From: Mobula hypostoma | Taxonomy: Eukaryota | Assembly: GCF_963921235.1 (NCBI RefSeq) | Contig: NC_086097.1 | Location: 10,850,001 to 10,914,000, forward strand | Direction of reading: 5' to 3' | DNA: 64,000 nt | In this document: piece by piece, positions 7,890 to 64,000 of the stretch | Numbering within the stretch: position 1 is the first letter of the stretch | Layout: each line of letters opens with the position of its first letter | Made by a program: the position numbers and the translations under genes | The notes under the pieces: model-generated | What the model saw: only the letters and a program-made list of their open reading frames with translations | Databases searched by the model: none | Told to the model about the DNA's origin: nothing

Positions 7890-8025
7890 ACAAACGAGAA
7901 AATTTGTAGATGGTGGAAATCAAAGTAATAACACACAAAATGTTGGAGGAACTCAGCAGGCCAGGCAGCATCTGTGGAAAAGCATAAACAGTCGACAGTT
8001 CTGGCCAAGACCCTTCATCAGTACT
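7890..8025 (-). mobile_element. Short Penelope-like terminus (pLTR fragment)
   Basis: 'acacacaaaatgttggaggaactcagcaggccaggcagcatc...gacccttcatcag' matches the end of the 12366-13598 element. Confidence 0.75.
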
Positions 8026-9898: not shown

Positions 9899-10290
9899 TA
9901 CAAGCAACACACATAAAAGTTGCTGGTGAGCGCAGCAGGCCAGGCAGCATCTCTAGGAAGAGGTACAGTCGACGTTTCGGGTCGAGACCCTTCATCAGCA
10001 CTAACTGAAGGAAGAGTGAGTAAGAGATTTGAAAGTGGGAGGGGGAGGGGAGATCCAAAATGATAGGAGAAGACAGGAGGGTGAGGGATGGAGCCAAGAG
10101 CTGGACTGGTAATTGGCAAAAGGAATATGAGAGGATCATGGGACAGGAGGCCCAGGGAGAAGGAAAAGGGGGAGGGGGGAAAACCCAGAGGATGGGCAAG
10201 GGGTATAGTGAGAAGGACAGAGGGAGAAAAAGGAGAGAGAGAAAAAGAATGTGTGTATATAAAAAGTAACGGATGGGGTATGAGGGGAAG
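9899..10290 (-). mobile_element. Penelope-like element 3' terminus
   Basis: Closely matches the reverse complement of 13210-13598. Confidence 0.85.
9967..10002 (-). ncRNA. Minimal type I hammerhead ribozyme motif
   Basis: Minus strand reads AGTG-CTGATGA-A-GGGTC-TC-GACCC-GAAA-C-GTC-GACT. Confidence 0.65.
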
Positions 10291-11990: not shown

Positions 11991-12365
11991 GTGTAGTCTT
12001 CACACATACAAGATAGTAAGCACATATCAATAAAACACAACAACAGAAGCCATGTCATTGGTGAATATTTCAAGATAATCAAATATAAAATAACTACTAC
12101 CAGGCAAGGAGTACCAGTGCACCATTGGACACCATAAGTTCACATGTCATACCATAAACTTTTCAATCAACTTTAATTCCCCATCCTATCCACAGCAATT
12201 AAACCATGATCCATAGCAAGTTATTAAGTGTCTCCCTTACATTTGCAATTATATTTAGCTGAGTTAGTTCATCATTGTCTTGCCATATGTGAACAAAAGC
12301 AGACATACACATGCAAGCAAAATATAATTCTGCCGCCTCCAAGAGAACCACAACCTTGATGTAGG

Positions 12366-13598
12366 ACTATTCCTCTTCTCACCCTGTCTCTTGCAAAAAC
12401 GCCATCCCCTTCTCGCAATTCCTCCGTCTCCGCCGCATCTGCTCTCAGGGTGAGGCTTTTCATTCTAGGACGAGGGAGATGTCTTCCTTTTTTAAAGAAA
12501 GGGGCTTCCCTTCCTCCACTATCAACTCTGCTCTTAAACGCATCTCCCCCATTTCACGTACATCTGCTCTCACTCCATCCTCCCGCCACCCCACTAGGAA
12601 TAGGGTTCCCCTGGTCCTCACCTACCACCCCACCAGCCTCCGGGTCCAACATATTATTCTCCGTAACTTCCGCCACCTCCAACGGGATCCCACCACTAAG
12701 CACATCTTCCCCCCCCCCTGCATTCCGCAGGGATTGCTCCCTACACAACTCCCTTGTCCATTCGTCCCCCCCATCCCTCCCCACTGATCTCCCTCCTGGC
12801 ACTTATCCGTGTAAGCGGAACAAGTGCTACACATGCCCTTACACTTCCTCCCTTACCACCATTCAGGGCCCCAAACAGTCCTTCCAGGTGAGGCAACACT
12901 TCACCTGTGAGTCGACTGGGGTGATATACTGCGTCCGGTGCTCCCGATGTAGCCTTTTGGCGAGACCCGACATAGACTGGGAGACCGCTTTGTTGAACAT
13001 CTACGCTCTGTCCGCCAGAGAAAGCAGGATCTCCCAGTGGCCACACATTTTAATTCCACATCCCATTCCCATTCTGACATATCTATCCACGGCCTCCTCT
13101 ACTGTAAAGATGAAGCCACACTCAGGTTGAAGGAACAACACCTTATATTCCGTCTGGGTAGCCTCCAACCTGATGGCATGAACATCGACTTCTCTAACTT
13201 CCGCTAAGGCCCCACCTCCCCCTCGTACCCCATCTGTTACTTTTTTTTTATGCACACATTCTTTCTCTCACTCTCCTTTTTCTCCCTCTGTCCCTCTGAA
13301 TATACCTCTTGCCCATCCTCTGGGTCCCCCCCCACCTTGTCTTTCTTCCCGGACCTCCTGCCCATGATCCTCTCGTATCCCCTTTTGCCTATCACCTGTC
13401 CAGCTCTTGGCTCTATCCCTCTCCCTCCTGTCTTCTCCTATCATTTTGGATCTCCCCCTCCCCCTCCAACTTTCAAATCCCTTATTCACTCTTCCTTCAG
13501 TTAGTCCTGACGAAGGGTCTTGGCCTGAAACGTCGACTGCACCTCTTCCTACAGATGCTGCTTGGCCTGCTGCGTTCACCAGCAACTTTGATGTGTGT
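12366..13598 (+). mobile_element. Penelope-like retroelement, 5'-truncated (linker, GIY-YIG endonuclease remnant and pLTR)
   Basis: FKERGFP...RVPLVLTYHP; Cys linker PCKRNKCYTCPY; FTCESTGVIYCVRCSRC, with the YIG motif lost by a small deletion; 13-bp TSD ACCTTGATGTAGG at 12353-12365 and 13599-13611. Confidence 0.9.
13503..13538 (+). ncRNA. Minimal type I hammerhead ribozyme motif
   Basis: AGTC-CTGACGA-A-GGGTC-TT-GGCCT-GAAA-C-GTC-GACT; stem I AGUC/GACU; predicted cut after C13534. Confidence 0.7.
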
Positions 13599-14314
13599 AC
13601 CTTGATGTAGGGTTTGGAGGGTTGTGTGCCTCATTGGCCTGGAGAGCTATGTTGGCTGGCATCACTGCCTTGTGCTTTGGTTCTTGGTAGGGTCACCCAT
13701 GCCAAACATTTCAAAGGGTAGAGGCTGGTTCCCCAGCCCTCCAGTTTCAGGATTCAGCTCACGGAAAACAACCCAGACTGTTAATACAAAATTGTTCCAG
13801 AATCAGCAATGAAGGCTCCTTCTATGTCTGATTGAGATAGTATTCCCAGGACTTGTATGACTGACAGTAGCAAAAACCAAAAGGAAGCTACTGGCATGAT
13901 GAAAGAAGTCCCGAACACCGCCAAGACCAGGGCAGACGGAGATGGCGGACCTTAGTTGCTGCTCTAAGTACCTGCAACGTAACAAGCAGTGTCCATCATT
14001 CAGCTAGGTTTCCGTCGTCTGTGATGTCATCCTCTAATAATTTTTACTTTCTACAAACACTTCTCATGTGTTACTCAGTCACATCAGGAGCTTCTTCCTG
14101 ATATGAAGATGAGAGCCAGACTGCTCTCGGTGTGCTCTCTCAAACGCAGGAGACGCATTGCCCATCTGTTAGGGTGTTTAAAATATTAAAAGGATGCAGT
14201 AGGACAGAGAGGGAGAAACTATTTCATCTGCTAAGTGAACAAGAGCGCAGGACATAACCTTAAAATTAGTGTTGGTTAGTAGTGAAGGAAACCAGGAAGC
14301 ACTTTCACAAGTAA

Positions 14315-15994: not shown

Positions 15995-16262
15995 CTCTCA
16001 ACCTTTTGCTTCACCCCTCCTCCCCCGCTCCTTGCCCACCCACTTGGCTTCACTTTCACCTTCCAGCTGAACCTCTTTCCCCTCCCCTCCACCTTCTTAT
16101 TCTGACTTCTTCCCCCTTCCTATCCAGTCTTAATGAAGAATTTTGGCTGAAACATTGACTGTTTATTCAGTTCCATCGATACTGCCTGATCTGCTGAGTT
16201 CCTCCAGCATTTTATGTGTGTTGCTCTGGATTTCCAGCATCTGCAGAATCTCTAGTGTTTAA
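15995..16262 (+). mobile_element. Penelope-like terminus, degraded
   Basis: C/T-rich tract, decayed hammerhead motif at 16125-16161, 'gagttcctccagcatttt' end. Confidence 0.7.
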
Positions 16263-17238: not shown

Positions 17239-17362
17239 AACACAAAATAATCTGCAGATGCTGGGGTCAAAGCAACACTCACAACATGCTGGAGGAACTC
17301 AGCAGGTTGGGCAGCATCCGTGGAAACGATGAGTTGACCTTTCGGGCTGGAGCCCTTCGTCA
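17239..17362 (-). mobile_element. 124-bp Penelope-terminus insertion with hammerhead core
   Basis: Flanked by GGTCTTA at 17232-17238 and 17363-17369; minus strand reads (C)TGACGA-A-GGGCT-CC-AGCCC-GAAA-G-GTC. Confidence 0.75.
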
Positions 17363-17885
17363 GGTCTTATGATCTTAACTTGCTCTGAATTTTCTTCAGC
17401 TTATAGTTTCTTTTATACCTAATTTTAATTTTCCTTCAACTTTCCTGATGTTTTCCCTCTCTATTGTTCTGTAATGTCCAAAGGAAACCAAAATCAATTC
17501 AAAGAATGAAGTTCTTTTTGCACATGTACAAGAAACACTAAACAATTGTGTTATTTTCAATCACTAACTCTATCCAGTGACATTTAATTTCTCCCTTCTC
17601 TAAACTTGAGCTTGACTTGCTATCAGATGATCAATCAAAAGAAAATAAACTCAGCTATTTAAATAAATTTTTCAATATAGTTTACAGTATTAGCTAGAAT
17701 TAGAATTAGCATATTTTAATTCTAGCTAAAACTGCACATTATATTTATGTAAATAAATTATTTGAATAAATATTAAGTTAACTGAAAAAGTAACTTGAAA
17801 CTTTTCATAGCAAGCAGTAATATTTTTTATGATAAGCTACAAAATTTAATAATTTTACTTGATCATGAATCAAACTTACAATATA

Positions 17886-18900
17886 CACTCAGTGGCCACT
17901 TTATTTGGTACACATGCTCGTTAACGCGAATATTTCATCAGTCAATCATGTAGCAGCAACTCAGGGGATAAGAGCAGGCAGACATGGTTGAAGGGTTCAG
18001 TTGTTGTTCAGAGCAAACATCAGAATGAAGAAGAAATGTGATCTTAGTGACGCACACAAAATGTTGGGAAAGATCAACAGATCAGGCAGTATCTATGGAA
18101 ATGAATAGATAATCAATGCTTCAGGCCAAGCCTCCTGCAGATGCTGGAATAAAAAGGTGCAGAGAGGGAAAAGAGGCTCGCTAGAAGGTATTAGGTGAAT
18201 CCAGGTGGGTGGGAAAGGACAAGGAGTTGAGAAGAAGAAATCTGATGGGAGAGGTGAGTAGACATTAAGAGAAAGGGAAGGAGAAGGGGACCTAGGGGTG
18301 AACAGGTGAGAAGAGGTGAAATGTTAGAGCAGGGAATAGTGGAAGGCTGGGGGGGGGGGCCGTTTGCTGGAAGAATAAATCAATATTCATGCCATCAGGT
18401 TGGACGCAACCCAGACGGAAGATAAGCTGTAGGCCTCCACTCTGAGGGTGGCCTCATCTTGGCACAAGAGGATGCCATGGACCAACACATTGGAATGGGA
18501 AAGGGAATTAGAATTAAAATGTTTGGCCACTGGGAAGTCCTGCTTGTGTTGAATGGCACAGGGGTACTCGATGAAGCATTCACCCATCGCAATTTACGAT
18601 GGGTCTCTCCAATTTAAAGGAGGCTGCATCAGAAGCACTGGAAACGATTGATAACCCCAGCAGATTCACAGGTGAAACATTGCCTCACCTGGAAGTGATC
18701 TCTGTGACTTTGACTGTGGAATGATTGGTGCCAGATGGGGTGCTTTGAGTATCTCAGAAATGGCTGATCTCCTAGGATTTTCATGCACAACAATCTCTAG
18801 AGTTTACAGAGAATGGTGCAAAAAACAATTAAAAAATACATCCAGTAAGCAGCAGTTCTGTGGGTGAAAACACATTGTTACCACAGTGAGAGAGGTCAGA
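17886..18900 (+). mobile_element. Tc1/mariner transposon 5' fragment, split by a Penelope insertion
   Basis: TA followed by 'cactcagtggccactttatt' TIR; decayed transposase start MKKKCDLSD...LSISEMADLLGFSCTTISRVYREW. Confidence 0.8.
18052..18694 (-). mobile_element. Penelope-like element, 5'-truncated
   Basis: ...KQDFPVAKHFNS...LVHGILLCQDEATLRVE homologous to 12880-13200; 14-bp TSD gtgatcttagtgac/gtgatctctgtgac at 18038-18051 and 18695-18708. Confidence 0.8.
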
Positions 18901-19315
18901 CAAATTTAAAGACATATGACAGTGATATTAACAAACAAGAGAAAATCTGCAATGCTGGAAATCTGAGCAACACATATAAAATGCTGTCTGGCCTGCTGAG
19001 TTCCTCCAGCATTTTGACGGTGATATGAAACCTTGTTCTGATATGTTTACAGAAGGTACTTTAGAAAACCTAGGCATTTTTTTCAATCTAATAATCTTCA
19101 ACATCTTGATGTTACATTCAATTAAGGTTTCTATAAACAGCTGTGCTCTCACTTATGCAATGATCGAGTCGAACCTGGTCAGTGGAATGAAAATAGAAAA
19201 TTTGAATCTATCGCGTTGATGGTAACCTTTGGGGAATTTCATGAATACTTAGTTTGCCAGTGCATTGAAAGTAGGTCTGAACCTCCTTACTGGAGAGTTT
19301 TAGAATTTGTTTGCC

Positions 19316-26579: not shown

Positions 26580-26772
26580 CAAGCGATTGCAGCAACTGGG
26601 ATCTGGGGCAACGCAAAAGAAGCTGGAGGAACTCAGCAGGTCAGGCAGCATCTATGGAGCGAAATGGACAGATGACATTTTAGAACAAGATCCTTTATCA
26701 GAACCAGATGAAGGGTTTCGACCCAAACCTCAGCTCTCTATTTAACTCCAGAGATGATGCATTGAGTTCCTA
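26580..26772. mobile_element. Head-to-head inverted pair of Penelope termini
   Basis: A minus copy ending '...gatcctttatcag' abuts a plus copy 'cagatgaagggtttcgaccc'. Confidence 0.65.
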
Positions 26773-28608: not shown

Positions 28609-28849
28609 AATTACTGAACTTGCTTTCATAATTAAACTGAGAAGAAAAGTCTTGGATCAAAATGGTGGCAAAATGGTTCTTAATGAAGGTTGCAAGCATG
28701 GAAAAAGACCAAGGTAACATGTCTGAACGACTGGCGTGCTATCGTGCTCACCTCAATAGGTCAATGACTACATTTGCAGTATGCCACCATCCACACTGGA
28801 CCTCTACAATTCACCAACTGACATAACCGATCAACAGATTACAGAATAG

Positions 28850-30003
28850 CCACAGCTCTACACTCGTCCTTACACATCTAGAGAAGAAGGATGCTTATGT
28901 GAGAATGCTGTTCTGGGACTACAGTTCAGCATTCAACACCATAATTCCCTCCAGGCTTGACAAGAAGCACAGAGACCTTGGCCTTCACCTTGCCTTGTGC
29001 GGCTGGATCCTGGACTTCCTGTCAGATCGCCACCAGGTGGTAAGAGTGGGCTCCCTCACCTCTGCCCCTCTGACCCTCAACACAGGAGCTCCTCAGGGCT
29101 GTGTCCTAAGCCCCCTCCTTTACTCTTTGTATACCCTTGACTGTATTGCCACCCGCAGCTCCAATCTGCTAATTAAATTTGCTGACGGTACTACATTAAT
29201 TGGCCTTGTCTTAAATAATAATGAGGCAGCCTGCAGAGAAGAATTCATTACACTGACACAGTGGTGTCAAGAAAACAACCTCTCCTTCAATGTCGCAAAA
29301 ACAAAGGAGCTGGTTGCGGACTACAGGAGGAATGGAAACAGGCTAACCCCTATTGACATCAATGGATCTGGGGTTGAGAGAGAGTGAACAGCTTTAAGTT
29401 CCTCAGCATACACATTACCAAGGATCTCACGTGGTCTGTACATACATGCTGTGTGATGAAAAAAAGCACAACATTGCCTCTATCACCTCAGACAGTTGAA
29501 GAAGTTTGGTATGGGTCCCCAAATCCTAAGGACTTTCCACAGGAGCACAATTGAGAGCATCCTGACTGGCTGCATCACTGCCTGGTATAGGAACTGTACT
29601 TCCCTCAGTCGCAGGGCTCTGCAGAGAGTGGTGTGGACAGCCCAGCGCATCTGTAGATGTGAACTTCCCACTATTCAGGACACTTGCATAGACAAATATG
29701 TAAAAAGGCCCCGAAGGATCATTGGAGACTGGAGTCACCCCAACCACAAACTGTTCTGGGAAAAGCATAAAAGCCAGGACCAACAGGCTCCGGGACAGCT
29801 TCTTCCACCAGGCCAACAGACTGATTAATTCACGCTGATACAATTATATTTCTATGTTATACGGACTCTCCTGTTGTACATAATATTTTTTATAAATTAC
29901 TATAAATTGCAGATTGCACATTGAGACGGGGACATAACGTAAAGATTTTTACTCCTCATGTATGTGAAGGATGTAATTAATAAAGTTAATTCATTTCAAT
30001 TCG
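28850..30003 (+). mobile_element. Rex1/Babar LINE, 5'-truncated (RT remnant)
   Basis: [66 protein letters not shown]. Confidence 0.9.
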
Positions 30004-32324: not shown

Positions 32325-33259
<935 letters not shown>

Positions 33260-35105
33260 ACATCATTTTCTGACCTCAATCCAATAGAAAATTTGAGGGC
33301 AGAACTGAAAACGCGGGTGCGAGCAAGGAGGCCTACAAACCTGACTCAGTTACACCAGTTCTTTCTGGAAAAACGAAACAAAATTCCAGCAACTTACTGT
33401 GAGAAGCTTGTGGAAGGCTACCTAAGTTAAACAATTTAAAGGCAATGCTACCAAATACTAACAAAGTGTATGTAAACTTCTGACCCACTGGGAAAGTGAT
33501 GAAAGAAATAAAAGCTGAAATAAATCATTCTCTCCACTATTATTCTGACATCTCACATTCTTAAAATAAAGTAGTGATCCTAACTGAGCTAAGAAAAGGA
33601 ATGCTTTCTAGGATTAAATGTCAGGAATTGTGGAAAAACTGAGTTTAAATGTATTTGGCTAAGGTGTATGTAAACTTCTGACTTGAACTTTAGGTATAAA
33701 TGACAATTTATGTATCAATTTATATATACCAATGATGTACCAATTTATCAGTTTACTGATTTGCCAGACCTGTTTCTCTCGCTCTGCAGATGTAGAAACA
33801 GAAAAAAGAATGTTTGCCATTTGAAGACCATAAGATATGAAAGCAGAAGTAGGCCATTTGGCCCATTGCGTCTGCTCTGCCATTCAATCATGGGTTGATC
33901 CAATTCTTCCAGTCATCCCCACTCTCCTGCCTTAACCCCATACCCTTTGAGGCCCTGGCTAATCAAGAATTTATCTATCTTTGCCTTAAATACACCCAAT
34001 GACTTGGCTTCCACAGCCGCATGTAGCAACAAATTCCACAGATTTACCACCCTCTGACTAAAGTAATTTCTCCACACCTCAGTTCTAAATGGACGTCCTT
34101 CAATCTTGAAGTCATGCCCTCTTGTCCAAGAATCCCCTACCATGGGAAATAACTTTGCCATATCTAATCTGTTCAGGCCTTTTAACATTCAGAATCTTTC
34201 TATTACATCCCCCCTCATTCTCCTGAACTCCAGGGAATACAGACCAAGAGCTGCCAGATGTTGCTCATACGGTAACCCTTTCATTCCTGGAATCATTCTT
34301 GTGAATCTTCTCTGAACCCTCTCCAATGTCATTATATCCTTTTTAAAATAAGGATCCCAAAACTGCACACAATGCTCCAAGTGTGCTCTCATGAGTGCCT
34401 TATAGAGCCTCAACATCACATCCCTGCTGTTATGTTCTTCACGTCTAGAAATGAATGCCAACATTACGTTCGCCTTCTTCACAACCGACTCAACCTGGCA
34501 GTTAACCTTTAGGGTATCTTGCACAAGGACTCCCAAGTCCCTTTGCATCTCTGCATTTTGAATTCTCTCCCCATCTAAATTATGGTCTACCCATTTATTT
34601 CTTCCACCAAAGTGTATGACCATACACTTTCCAATACTGTATTTCATTTACCACTTCTTTGCCCATTCCCCTAAACTATCTAAGTCTCTCTGCAGGCTCT
34701 CTGTTTCCTCAACACTACCTGCTCCTTCACTTATCTTTGTATCATTGGCAAATTTAGCCACAAGTTCATTAATTTTCATTAGTTCATTAATGCCGTAGTC
34801 CAATCATTGACATACATCGTAAAAATCTGCTATCCCAACACCCTTTACTCCCACTCTCTGTTTTCTGCCGACCAGCCAATGGTCCACATGTGCTAGTAAC
34901 TTCCTGTAAATCCACGGGTTCTGATCTTGCTGAGGAGCCTCATGTGCAGCACCTTGTCAAAGGTCTTCTGACAATCCAAGTACTGTACACCACGTCTACT
35001 GCATCTCCTTTGTCTACCCTGCTTGTAACTTCCTCAAAGCATTGCTGTAGGTTTGTCAGGCAGGATTTTCCTTTCAGGCCTATCATGTCATGTGCCTCCA
35101 GATAC

Positions 35106-35634: not shown

Positions 35635-37399
35635 CTATAGTTTCCTTTCTGCTACCTCCCACCTTTCTTAAATAGCGGAGTAAAATTTGCAATTTTCCAG
35701 TCATCTGGTACAATGCCAGAATCTATCGATTCTTGAAAAGTCATCATTAATGCCTTTGCAATCTCTTCAGCTACTTCCTTCAGAACCCGAGGGTGCATTT
35801 CATCAGGTTCAGGAGATTTATCCACCCTCAGACCATTTAGCTTCCTGACCACCTTCTCAGTCGTAATTTTCACTGCACAAACTTCACTTCCCTGACACTC
35901 TTGAATGTCTGATATACTGCAGACGTCTTCCACTGTGAAGACTGATGCAAAATACTCATTCAGTTCCTCTGCCTTCTCTGCATCTCTCATTACAATATCT
36001 CCAGCGTTATTTTGTATTGGTCCTATATCTACCCTCAACTCTCTTTTACCCTTCATATACTTAAAAAAGCTTTTAGTAACTTCTTTGATATTAGTCACCA
36101 GTTTCCTTTCATAATTCATCTTTTCCTTCCTAATGACCTTCTTAGTTTCCTTCTGCAAATTTTTAAAAGCTTCCCAATCCTCTGTCTTCCCACTAGCTCT
36201 GGCTCCTCGTATGCCCTCTCCTTTGCTTTTACTTTGGTTCTGACTTTAGTTGTCATGGTAATCTCCTTCTTCCTTTTGAAAATTTCTTCTTATTTGGAAT
36301 ATATCTGTCTTGCACTTGCCTCATTTTTCACAGTAACTCCAGCCATTGCTGCTCTGCTGTCCTTCCTGCAAATGTCCCTTTCCAATCAACTTCGGCCAGT
36401 TCCCCTCTCATGCCATTGTAATTTCCTTTATTCCACTGAAATACTGACACATTAGATTTTATTTTTTTCCCTCTCAAATTTCAATGTGAACTCGATCATA
36501 TTGTGATCATTGTTCTCTAAAGGTTCCTTAACCTTAAGCTCTCTTATCAGCTCCAGATCATTGTACAACACCCAATTCAGCACAGCCGATCCCCTCGTGG
36601 GCTCAACAACAAGCTGTTCTAAAAAGCCATCCCTTAGACATTCTACAAATTGTCTCTCTTGAGATCCAGTACTGACCTGGTTTTCCCAATCCACTTTCAT
36701 GTTAAAATCCCCAATGATTATCATGACATTATCCTTCTGACACACCTTTTCTATCTCCTGCTGTAATTTGTAATCCACATCCCAGCTGCTGTTTGGAGGC
36801 CTGTATACAACTACCATTAGGGTCCTTTTACCCTTGCCATCTCTTAACTCAACCCATAGAGATCCTACACCTTCCGATCCTATAATATCCCTTTCTAATG
36901 ATTTAATATTATTTCTCATACACAGGGCTACACCATTCCCTCTGCCCACTAACCTATCTTTTCTATACAGTGTATATCCTTGGTCATTCAACTCCCAATG
37001 GCAGCAATCCTTTAGCCAAGTTTCATAGATGGCCACAACGTCATACTTGCCAACCTGTAGCTGAATTTCAAGATCGTCCATTTTATTCCTTATGCTGCGT
37101 GCATTCAAATACAACACTCTCAGTCCAGTATTTGTTATTTCCTGTTTTAAATGCACCATGCCTCTATTGCCCTGTAACTCATCTCACTGGCTGTGATTAA
37201 GCCTCATTTCCTGCCTTTTCTCTCTATAATCTCTGTTGCACGCTATCTTTGACTTATCTCTGTTTTCCCCTTCCTCAGCCCTATCACTCCAGTTCCCATC
37301 CCCCTGCTAAGTTAGTTTAAACCCTCCCTAACAGCTCTATTAAATGTGCCCGCTTGGATATTGGACCCCTTCGGGTTCAGGTGTAACCTGTTCTTTTAG

Positions 37400-41610: not shown

Positions 41611-41742
41611 AAACCTGATGAAGATTGTCATCCCAAAACATCGACTGTTTATTCATTTCCATAGATGCTGCCTGACGCCTGACCTGCTGTGTTCCTCCAG
41701 TATTTTGTGTGTGTTGCTCTGGATCTGCAGAATCTCAATGTT
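41611..41742 (+). mobile_element. Short Penelope terminus starting at the hammerhead core
   Basis: 'cctgatgaag...aaaacatcgactg...gttcctccagtattttgtgtgtgttgc'. Confidence 0.7.
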
Positions 41743-43302: not shown

Positions 43303-45595
43303 GTAAGACCATAAGACAAAGGTGCAGAAGTCAGCCATTCAGCCCATCGAGTCTGCTCCGCCATTTTATCATGAGCTGATCCATTCTCCCATTTAGTCCC
43401 ACACCCCCGCCTTCTCACCATAACCCTGGCTACTCAGATACCTATCAATCTCTGCCTTAAATACACCCAATGACTTGGCCTCCACTGCCACTTGTGGCAA
43501 CAAATTCCATAGATTTACCACCCTCTGGCTAAAAAAAATTCTTTGCATCTCTGTTCTGAATGGGCATCCTTCAATCTGTAAGTCATACCCTCTCGTACTA
43601 GACTCCCCCATCACGGGAAACAACTTTGCCACATTCACTCTGTCCATGCCTTTCAACATTCGAAATGTTTCTGAGGTCTCCTCTCATTCTTCTAAACTCC
43701 AAGGAATATAGTCCAAGAGCGGACAAATGTTCCTCATATGTTAACCATCTCATTCCCGGAATCATTCTAGTGAATCTTCTCTGTACCCTCTCCAATGTCA
43801 GCACATCCTTTCTTAAATAAGGAGACCAAATCTGCCCGCAGTACTCCAAATGAGGTCTCACCAGTGCCTTATAGAGCCTCAACATCACATCACTTCTCCT
43901 ATACTCTATTCCTCTAGAAATGAATGCCAACATTGCATTTGCCTTCTTCACCACCAACTCAACCTGGAAGTTAACCTTAAGGGTATCCTGTACGATGACT
44001 CCCAAGTCCCATTGCATCTCAGAACTTTGAATTCTCTCCCCATTTAAATAATAGTCTGCCCGTTTATTTCTTCTGCCAAAGTGCATAACCATAAACTTTC
44101 CAACATTGTATTTCATTTGCCACTTCTTTGCCCATTCTTCCAATCTATCCAAGTCTTTCTGCAGACTCTCCGTTTCCTCAGCACTACCGGCCCCTCCACC
44201 TATCTTTGTATCATCAGCAAACTTAGCCACAAAGCCACCTATTCCATAATCCAAATCGTTGATGTACAATATAAAAAGAAGCGGCCCCAACACGGACCCC
44301 TGTGGAAAACCACTGGTGACCGGCAGCCAACCAGAATAGGATCCCTTTACTCCCACTCTCTGTATCCTGCCAATCAGCAATGCTCTATCCACAAATGCAA
44401 CTTTCCCGTAATTCCATGGGCTTTTATCTTGTTAAGTAGCCTCATATGTGGCACCTTATCAAAAGCCTTCTGAAAATCCAAATATACAACACCCACTACA
44501 TCTCCCTTGTCTAGCCTACTTGTAATTTCCTCAAAAAATTGTAATAGGTTTGTCAGGCAGGATTTTCCTTTAAGGAATCCATGCTGAGTTCTGCCTATCT
44601 TGTCATATATGTAGCCCCCCGGCCAAGCCTCAGGGTCGCTCGGCTCGCTGTCATCTAGGGAAACAGCCCTCAGCCCCGGCAAACTGGGTAATCACTTTGT
44701 GTGGATACTGTGTGATGTACCCCACCCCGACCAAATAACAGACAATACACCAGATATGATTAAATGATTTACAGTTTATAGATATTACTGGAACTATATA
44801 ATTAATAGAGAATAAAATGTAAAAGGAAAATAAAAGGCACCACACTTATCAAAGTTCTATCTCTTCGTGCACAAACAGTTGGAGCTCAGGACCCTTCTTC
44901 TTCACCCTGCAACCCCTCAGACGTCCTCGACCGGCCAACTGGGACCAACGACGGTGGTCGACCAGACGCTCCACACGAGTCCAGCTCTGTCTCCTCTCTT
45001 CGTCGAACGCCCCGCTCAGGGTCTGACCCCGTTAGTGGACTCGCAGCACCTGGTCCATCCTCTGTTTCTCTCTCTCCCGCCTTCTGTGCCAAAACCCCGC
45101 GCATACAATATCTTCAGACACACTAAAAGCATAACAACTATCCCAATTGGTTCGTAACACCTTTCTTATCAGTAACATGATGCAAACAAACTGTTAGCGG
45201 GAGAACTTTCTCAGCAGTTAACATAACAAAGAAGCTCTTTCAATTATAACATAACAAAGAAGCCATTTTAATTAGACTACACAGTGACGAGAAAAAGAAA
45301 CCCACTTACATATGCCTCCAGGTACTCTGTAACCTCATCCTTGACAATCGACTCCAACAACTTCCCAACCACCGATGTCAAGCTAACAGGTCTATAATTT
45401 CGTTTTTGCTTCCTTGCCCCCTTCTTAAATAGCGGAGTGACATTTGTAATCTTCCAGTCCTCCGGAACCATGCCAGAATCTATCGACTTTTGAAAGATCA
45501 TCACTAATGCCTCTGCAATCTCCACAGCTACTTCCTTCAGAACACGAAGGTGCATTCCATCTGGTCCAGTAGATTTATCTACCTTTAGATATTCA
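43303..45595 (-). mobile_element. CR1 LINE (RT to tail), interrupted by a solo LTR
   Basis: VTSGFPQGSVLGPLLFILYINDLD, KFADDTK, RPHLEYCGQIWSPY. Confidence 0.95.
44610..45310. mobile_element. Solo LTR, family C
   Basis: TGTAG...CTTACA; TSD TATA/TATG; the CR1 resumes on both sides. Confidence 0.85.
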
Positions 45596-58541: not shown

Positions 58542-58985
58542 AAGTCTACAAATGCTGGAATCCAAAGCAACACACACAAAATGCTGGAGGAACTCAGCAG
58601 GTCAGTCAGCATCTATGGAAAAGAATAAACAGTTGACATTTCTGGATGAGACCTTTCTTTAGGACTGAGAAGGAAGCAGGAGGACGCCAGAATAAAAAGG
58701 AGGGGAAGGAGGGGAAGGAGAATATCTAGAAGAAGATAGGTGAAGCCAGGTGGGTGGGAAAGGTAAAGGGCTGGAGATGAAGGAATCTAATAGGGGAGGA
58801 GAGTGGGCCGCAGGAGAAAGGGAAGGAGGAAGAGACCTGGGGGAAGTGACAGGCAGGTGAGAAGAGGTACAAGGCCAGAGTGGGGAATAGAGGAAGAGGG
58901 GAGGGGGTGGGAGGAATAATTTTTTTACCGGAAGGAGAAATCGATATTCAGGGCATCAGGTTGGAGGTTACCCAGATGGAAAGTA
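58542..58985 (-). mobile_element. Penelope-like 3' terminus
   Basis: Homologous to 18052-18420; decayed hammerhead motif at 58630-58667. Confidence 0.8.
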
Positions 58986-59424: not shown

Positions 59425-59695
59425 TCTCTCCTTCCCTTTTTCCTATGGTCCACTCTTCTCTCCTATCAGATTCTTTCTTCTTCAGCCCATGACCTTTCCC
59501 ACCCACCTGGCTTCACCTATCACCTTCCATCTAACCTTTTTCCACTCCCCCCCACCCCACATTTTTATTCTGGCATCTTTCCCTTTTCTTCTCAGTCTTG
59601 GGGAAGGGTCTCGGCCCAAAACATCAATTGTTTACACTTTTACATAGACGCTGCCTGACCGGCTGAGTTCCAGCAACATTTTGTGCATGTTGTGA
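59425..59695 (+). mobile_element. Penelope-like 3' terminus
   Basis: 'gaagggtctcggcccaaaacatc' decayed hammerhead motif at 59593-59630. Confidence 0.8.
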
Positions 59696-62998: not shown

Positions 62999-64000
62999 GT
63001 GTTCCTTCAGTTGTCAACGGGTTTTCATGTACTGGAAGGTTAGGGCTTACAAGTTGACCCATCAGAAGTAGTGGCACACTTCTGTAAATCATCAAACTTT
63101 TGTGCAAATCTTCTTGTCCACTTTGCACTTTCTTTATGAGACCCTTCACTACCTTGACCGAACTTTCTGCTAGGCCATTAGATTCTGCATGATGTGGGCT
63201 TGAAGTTATATGTTGAAACCCTCAATCATTGGCAAAGGACTCAAATTAACAGCTCGAAAATTGTTGACCATTGTCTAATACCACTCCACATGGAACTCCA
63301 TGCCTCGCAAACACAGCTTTCGGGACGGTGATGACCACTTTGCTGGATGTTGAGTGCAGTGTTGCAACATCTGGGTAGTTGGAAAAGTAGTCTGTTACAA
63401 CAATGTGACTCTTTCCATTACAAACAAACAAATCCACTCCAACTTTGAAGTATGGCTTGTCTGGTACAGGGTGTGGTGTAAGCGGTTCTGCTTGCTGCTT
63501 TGGTCTGTAGGTAAGACAATCTCATATGAGACAATAGTCTGAATGATGTCTTGGTTCATTCTTGACCAATATGTCACTTCCCAAGCTCTACATTTACATT
63601 TTTCCTCACCATGATGCCCTTTGTGTATCTTCTGGAGCATTTCCTTGCACAGTGACACTGAAATCACAAACCTGTTCCCTTTGAACACTGTATCTTCCAC
63701 TACTAACAGTCCAGCTCTGCCCGCACGCTGATTCTGAATACACATTGGACTGTCATTATCAGCTGCTGGCCATCCTTTTTGTATTGTCTCTTTGAGTACT
63801 TTCATTGTTTCATCCATCCCTGCTGCTGTCCCAATCTCTGGTCAATCAGGAGATACCGGAATGAAGGTGACAATTATGTCAACACAGGCCTGTATACAAG
63901 CATTAATCTTTTGGTCACTCTTTTCTTTCTTGTTGACTGCTCAAGATAGTGCATCAGCAATAAATATAGATTTTCCCAGTGCATAGTGGTTTGGATGTAA

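Follow-up and report, generated by a model that had tools for sequence, protein, structure and literature searches.

Minimal hammerhead ribozymes (min-HHRs) have been described in the pseudo-LTRs of metazoan Penelope-like elements (PLEs), with the consensus CUGANGAH (Cervera and De la Peña, 2014; PMC4209133). Table S1 of that study lists 5'-truncated PLEs that carry the motif 3' of the ORF. The same work reports weak cleavage by dimers, and places the 3' terminus of the Drosophila virilis Penelope intron at the 5' end of helix I; the dimer model is restated in a review that cites Lunse et al. (PMC6765202). A vertebrate case is the Poseidon element PAc of Anolis (Frangieh et al., 2024; PMC11167929), for which hammerhead cleavage is reported to need protein and uncut RNA to be the main substrate. 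According to that report, core mutants still insert in vitro, RNA-seq gave no ends at the cut site, a C3/G8 rescue was obtained, and reverse transcription starts inside the RNA at two sites that define a tail. Naiad elements are described as thriving without the motif (PMC8557442). Among animal non-LTR retrozymes, type I hammerheads have been reported in a preprint that also surveyed PLEs and included one chondrichthyan in its sample (bioRxiv 10.64898/2026.07.22.740005). For the elements themselves, a CX2-5CxxC linker between the reverse transcriptase (RT) and the endonuclease (EN) is given as the mark of Neptune and Nematis (PMC8557442; PMC3846280), and inverted junctions have been described for PLEs (PMC3846280).

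Here we report on a window of 64,000 nucleotides from the ray Mobula hypostoma (NC_086097.1, positions 10,850,001 to 10,914,000), numbered from its first letter; features are collected in Table 1. Very probably, a minimal type I hammerhead is present there in complete form, within the 3' pseudo-LTR of a Neptune-type PLE that is itself broken; in the parent element the motif likely worked only as a protein-assisted dimer, and in this lone copy it is likely inactive.

Table 1. Features of the focal Penelope-like element and related copies in the 64,000-nucleotide window.
Feature	Positions	Strand	Basis or remark
Target-site duplication, left copy, 13 bp	12353-12365	+	Identical to 13599-13611
Neptune-type Penelope-like element, 5'-truncated, solo insertion	12366-13598	+	One ribozyme motif
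Broken ORF remnant: RT thumb, Cys linker, GIY-YIG endonuclease	12365-13207	+	Frame breaks near 12720 and 12955; stop 13205-13207
CX4CxxC zinc-finger-like linker between RT and endonuclease	12810-12836	+	Translation
Pyrimidine-rich 3' UTR / pseudo-LTR	13208-13502	+	88% shared with the 9907-10290 copy
Splice-acceptor-like tract (polypyrimidine, CAG 13498-13500)	13481-13500	+	Two bases 5' of stem I; use putative
Stem I, 5' arm AGUC	13503-13506	+	Sequence; optional fifth pair U-G 13502/13539
Core CUGACGA (13507-13513) and extra A (13514)	13507-13514	+	Sequence; extra A between positions 9 and 10.1
Stem II, 4 bp (G-U, G-C, G-C, U-G), CUUG loop	13515-13526	+	Sequence, folding
GAAA (13527-13530); palindrome ACGU (13530-13533) replacing stem III; C17 (13534)	13527-13534	+	C17 is the predicted cut site
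Stem I, 3' arm GACU	13535-13538	+	Sequence
Conserved terminal block 3' of ribozyme	13553-13598	+	Column identity 0.83; focal copy without the optional ~30-bp tail
Target-site duplication, right copy, 13 bp	13599-13611	+	Identical to 12353-12365
Copy of the focal subfamily	9967-10002	-	Core intact; G.G mismatch at stem I closing pair
Copy of another subfamily	17332-17367	-	Stem II differs on both sides; C15.2 (palindrome) and two stem I pairs lost
Decayed copy	59594-59629	+	Four core changes; given as 59593 in the first-pass annotation
Decayed copy	7990-8025	-	
Decayed copy, nearest same-strand copy to the focal one	16126-16160	+	Four core changes; given as 16125 in the first-pass annotation
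Head-to-head inverted pair of decayed copies	26670-26735	26670 -, 26705 +	Joined at stem I
Decayed copy	41611-41646	+	
Decayed copy	58631-58666	-	Given as 58630 in the first-pass annotation
Further remnant	18100-18135	-	Absent from the first-pass annotation; 5' half of motif unrecognisable

The RT core is missing from the focal copy. A Pfam search of three window pieces returned nothing significant, and the element class is taken from relatives. One full-length relative (P0019) carries RVT_1 and GIY-YIG domains and aligns to the element by tblastn in three pieces over 12368-13183, at 45-51% identity. A 118-aa piece of the ORF matches 47 of 130 candidate proteins, with those from Mobula (95%) and Hypanus (89%) at the top. 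By its RT/GIY-YIG layout, and by a linker mark that Neptune shares with Nematis, the host element is classed as Neptune-type. Because identical 13-bp repeats bracket the element, it represents one solo insertion with one motif; self-comparison of the window gave no tandem partner. Non-LTR retrozymes are defined by tandem units that each carry a complete hammerhead, and the focal copy stands alone between its target duplications. Other mobile remnants in the window include a Tc1-type transposase piece (32881-33345, minus strand), LINE RT and endonuclease pieces (43601-44431 and 36455-37183, minus; 28827-29384, plus) and a zinc-binding piece of an LTR-element integrase (63398-63841, minus); four further window ORFs had no Pfam match.

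The ribozyme motif lies 296 bp 3' of the stop codon, in the sense orientation of the ORF. For its identification we coded the RNAmotif form of the min-HHR descriptor in Fig. S7 of PMC4209133 (stem I of 3-7 bp, CUGANGA plus an optional base, stem II of 3-7 bp, and GAAANNUH) and ran it on both strands of the window, where 13503-13538 is the sole match; dinucleotide shuffles gave 5 matches per 1000. A looser descriptor of our own likewise found one match with a stem I in the window, and matches in 6 of 300 shuffles. Descriptor and position agree with the first-pass annotation, which had read these letters, correctly, as a minimal type I hammerhead at a PLE terminus, with stem III cut down to the palindrome ACGU; the predicted cut is after C13534. 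The palindrome occupies the 15.1-16.1 segment and forms no stable helix III. The same annotation drew stem II with 5 bp, which would leave just two bases for the loop; a 4-bp stem under a CUUG or CUCG tetraloop fits better, and for CUUG loops a partly formed internal C-G pair has been documented (PMC10401711). It had also taken the extra A, present in 10 of 11 window copies, for a family variant. This is instead a published general feature: by our count of the rows in Fig. S3 (PMC4209133), 54 of 56 motifs have the extra base, which is A in 30 of the 56 and in 10 of 11 vertebrate rows. The same ACGU occurs in 29 of the 56, and none of the 56 rows is from a shark or ray.

A profile search of the window yielded 12 strong matches, 11 of which cover the motif region. 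Scored position by position, only the copy at 13503 keeps core, stem I and palindrome together. All copies listed by the first-pass annotation do exist in the window, but those at 9967, 17332 and 59593, which it had grouped with 13503 as kept, are damaged. The minus-strand copy at 17332 is short, starts at the core and has a 7-bp target duplication; that at 9907-10290 (minus) begins at the counterpart of 13216, some 10 bp beyond the stop codon, and is almost exactly one pseudo-LTR. A second head-to-head inverted pair of repeat ends, joined in the downstream block, lies at 18933-19023. Abundance is clearly high, with 11 ribozyme-region copies in 64 kb and 15,484 contigs on a 241-bp stretch in one public run. 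That the repeat disperses very many ribozyme motifs is right as far as motifs go, but not if working ribozymes are meant: of the 11 window copies 10 are damaged, and in the public contigs variation is about as frequent at catalytic CpG positions as at other CpG.

Five of ten copies (7990-, 17332-, 41611+ and the pair 26670-/26705+) show no likeness to the long copies upstream of stem I. Starts near the 5' edge of the motif may mark a preferred reverse-transcription stop or an RNA 5' end. We set aside a clustering of 5' ends at this edge (4 of 9 insertions; P of 0.004 or lower under a uniform null), since still shorter copies exist and truncation is biased toward short copies.

We also assessed pairing across 11 copies and nine pairs, in which 74% of 96 cells pair. 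Both-side changes occur at 4 of 9 pairs, compared with 2.7 +/- 1.3 in shuffles, and 133 of 500 shuffles reach four; the shuffles match or beat the observed value for paired cells in 171 of 500 cases and for the covariation score in 155 of 500, a comparison of low power with 11 decayed copies. Slid structures pair less (20-43%), as expected when the structure was derived from the same sequences. The stem II changes that had been called compensatory are accordingly within what shuffling produces: 13503, 9967 and 59593 differ on one side only (G-C/G-U, U-A/U-G), and the sole both-side difference, at two pairs, sets 17332 apart from 9967 in a single copy. Nor does the core stand out from its flanks. 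Column identity is 0.84 and 0.81 for the two core halves, 0.74 for stem II, 0.76 for the linker and 0.83 for the downstream block, so that within the window the core is no better conserved than the block 3' of it.

Variation was further examined in public contigs from four runs, aligned on 13400-13640 at 80% likeness (4634, 15,484, 15 and 1349 contigs). Contigs cannot show RNA ends; none of the four runs is recorded as RNA, although one (X1) is possibly RNA. Among the loose ends listed, the main break points fall before 13503 and behind 13539, that is, at the motif borders (65 and 79 contigs in X1, 431 and 450 in X20, 43 and 37 in X13); others listed lie behind 13598 and 13605. Behind 13539 the letters match the other window subfamily; before 13503 they form a mixture in which insertion flanks may be present. 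In terms of sequence, break points at the motif borders fit a motif common to subfamilies with different flanks. Weighted by depth, G8, G12 and C17 are changed in 6-13% of the X20 data and in 11-22% of the X13 data, much like the CpG sites nearby. At 15.2/16.2 and at 17/1.1 the C>T rate is roughly the same as the paired G>A rate. Neutral decay after insertion would give such a pattern. Core CpG changes in X1 are just 1-2%, so that transcripts may come from some copies that are young and intact, and these could encounter one another in trans. A separate scan of metagenome contigs for the downstream block gave 0 matches.

The pair that closes stem II (G10.1-C11.1) is G-C in five of the 11 copies, G-U in four, including the focal one, and something else in two. 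In three runs, position 13526 is U in 39-86% and C in 14-61% of the data, and its CpG partner is changed in 1-11%. Simple CpG decay was rejected as the source of U13526, U being far commoner than the partner change. The G-U pair looks like an inherited subfamily state, with reference bias a possible influence on these proportions.

In the predicted fold of a 43-nt fragment, stems I and II are present (p 0.87-0.97), but the cut-site triplet is taken up in pairs with the core (p of at least 0.98), and in a 131-nt context the hammerhead helices are lost (p of at most 0.01). Nearest-neighbour energies are -11.1 kcal/mol for the active dimer, -11.7 for each misfolded monomer and -33.5 for the misfolded dimer. 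On these predictions the monomer is inactive, and the active dimer is not the favoured state. A second palindrome, GUCGAC at 13532-13537, straddles the cut site and in folding favours a competing inactive dimer.

At the 3' side, each of the ten copies inspected continues for 40 nt or more beyond C17, and no copy has its start at G1.1; most end about 65 nt past C17, or about 100 nt with a tail. Where the 3' end of a copy is intact, it lies far beyond the cut site, and the templates were therefore likely uncut, in line with the Anolis report (PMC11167929). In 17332 and 58630, folding predicts pairs between the optional tail (also present at 16125+) and the start of the downstream block; the block is conserved like the core and is a candidate reverse-transcription start signal.

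These observations can be arranged into a working model. By analogy with published motifs, two motifs in a tandem parent transcript would join through ACGU in a common stem III of 4 bp, exchange their stem I arms and be cut after C17, probably helped by the element protein. For a single motif the prediction is instead an inactive, rod-like fold, with the core bound up in pairs with the cut-site triplet. The likely start of reverse transcription is some 65-100 nt 3' of the motif, on mostly uncut RNA, which would explain why 3' ends carry the whole motif. After insertion, copies would decay like other DNA, mostly at CpG. As for the focal copy, a single motif lies within its 13-bp duplication, and in the nearest copy on the same strand the core is changed at four positions; with neither an intact partner in cis nor an intact ORF, it is likely inactive. 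Against the model count the missing Rfam match, the lack of a covariation excess, a core no better conserved than the block 3' of it, the folding results, G-U in place of the conserved G-C that closes stem II, and the low rate of core CpG changes in X1.

Several of the same observations would suit a motif that is hammerhead-derived and is kept as a recognition signal for the element protein (or as a signal at the DNA level), with cleavage vestigial even in active parents, a possibility that we consider rather unlikely. Window copies extend past C17 and the active fold is not favoured, and the literature adds the Anolis core mutants that were without effect on insertion in vitro, the reported lack of RNA-seq ends at the cut site (PMC11167929) and the success of Naiad elements that have no such motif (PMC8557442). 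However, the catalytic letters are common to subfamilies with different flanks, published dimers do cleave, if weakly (PMC4209133), and the Anolis motif shows the C3/G8 rescue (PMC11167929).

Another explanation starts from the acceptor-like tract next to the motif: the ribozyme would be coupled to splicing, with a pseudo-LTR intron that ends at stem I, so that spliced and unspliced RNAs differ in the 5' context of the ribozyme and host genes can exonize the motif. We regard this as unlikely. A polypyrimidine tract with YAG at or just 5' of stem I is found in five of five long copies, and two of four inspected copies, the focal one not among the two, have a donor-like GTAA that overlaps their stop codon. 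In the account of D. virilis Penelope, too, the intron runs right up to helix I (PMC4209133). A profile search of the repeat-end translation against 1.84 billion proteins gave three matches, of which two are relevant: P0048 and P0049, both Mobula gene models that pass from host sequence into the repeat. In P0049 the likeness to the element begins with the codon that AG 13499-13500 splits, as splicing would predict. The third (P0050) was dropped, as it matches at just 11 positions in a repetitive protein. On the other side, the whole pseudo-LTR is pyrimidine-rich and has a second acceptor-like CAG at 13552-13554; the relevant proteins are just two, both predicted gene models, and P0048 is ambiguous, with two more residues shared with the unspliced element. 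The contigs aligned on 13400-13640, a stretch without the donor region, showed no spliced read, and word-index protein searches for host proteins with the repeat end found nothing. Pieces of the element are contained in three ray gene models, P0048, P0049 and P0004 (a STARD3NL isoform, an uncharacterized protein and a chitinase-domain isoform). The broader proposition, that in the Neptune elements of rays a spliceosomal intron persists with its 3' splice site next to stem I, as in Drosophila Penelope, that this coupling of intron and ribozyme is ancestral across Penelope clades and that dispersed ends serve as acceptors for host mRNAs, we hold to be doubtful at present.

Mere accidental likeness to a hammerhead is very improbable: although Rfam gave no match anywhere in the window at gathering score (and four weak chance matches, none a hammerhead, at E <= 10 over 13400-13640) and covariation is not significant, shuffles yielded just 5 matches in 1000, and the motif sits at exactly the published PLE place and in the published orientation.

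With the locus read as a minimal hammerhead at the end of a broken Neptune-type PLE, rays join the many animals for which the pattern was published in 2014; no cartilaginous fish was then among the 56 motifs. Our literature search found no study devoted to PLE hammerheads of cartilaginous fish, although supplements of the retrozyme preprint may list chondrichthyan families, and no publication that joins Penelope, exonization and hammerhead. A solo broken copy does not settle what the motifs do for Penelope-like elements. The family itself is useful material: its copies are extremely numerous, fall into several subfamilies and stop at clear 3' end points, and would allow a genome-wide test of constraint and of the reverse-transcription start. 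Were the acceptor lead real, it would tie together in a vertebrate two oddities of these elements, introns and ribozymes, and the very numerous dispersed ends would serve as preformed acceptors by which host mRNAs take up a dimer-gated ribozyme.

The min-HHRs of metazoan PLEs are the closest known counterpart. They share the type I layout, the base after A9, ACGU for stem III and a short stem I, and likewise lie 3' of RT-EN in truncated copies, mostly solo; the Neptune motif of Acropora digitifera (Fig. S3, PMC4209133) has the same layout as the focal one. The focal motif differs from the published ones in its stem II, which is only 4 bp long and has a closing G-U in place of the conserved G10.1-C11.1. 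With Anolis PAc, as far as its published description goes, the locus shares a motif that lies upstream of where the genomic copy ends, a pair of 3' end points spaced by about 30 bp (the optional tail) and a probably uncut template; PAc belongs to the Poseidon clade and its activity has been measured, whereas the focal element is of Neptune type and its activity is a prediction. The D. virilis motif is described with a 2-bp helix I and a longer palindrome, and the intron shown there is only putative at the focal site. Non-LTR retrozymes, reported in one chondrichthyan genome, carry type I hammerheads related to PLE ends but are, as described, tandem non-coding repeats, whereas the focal copy is a solo fragment of a coding element with a target duplication.
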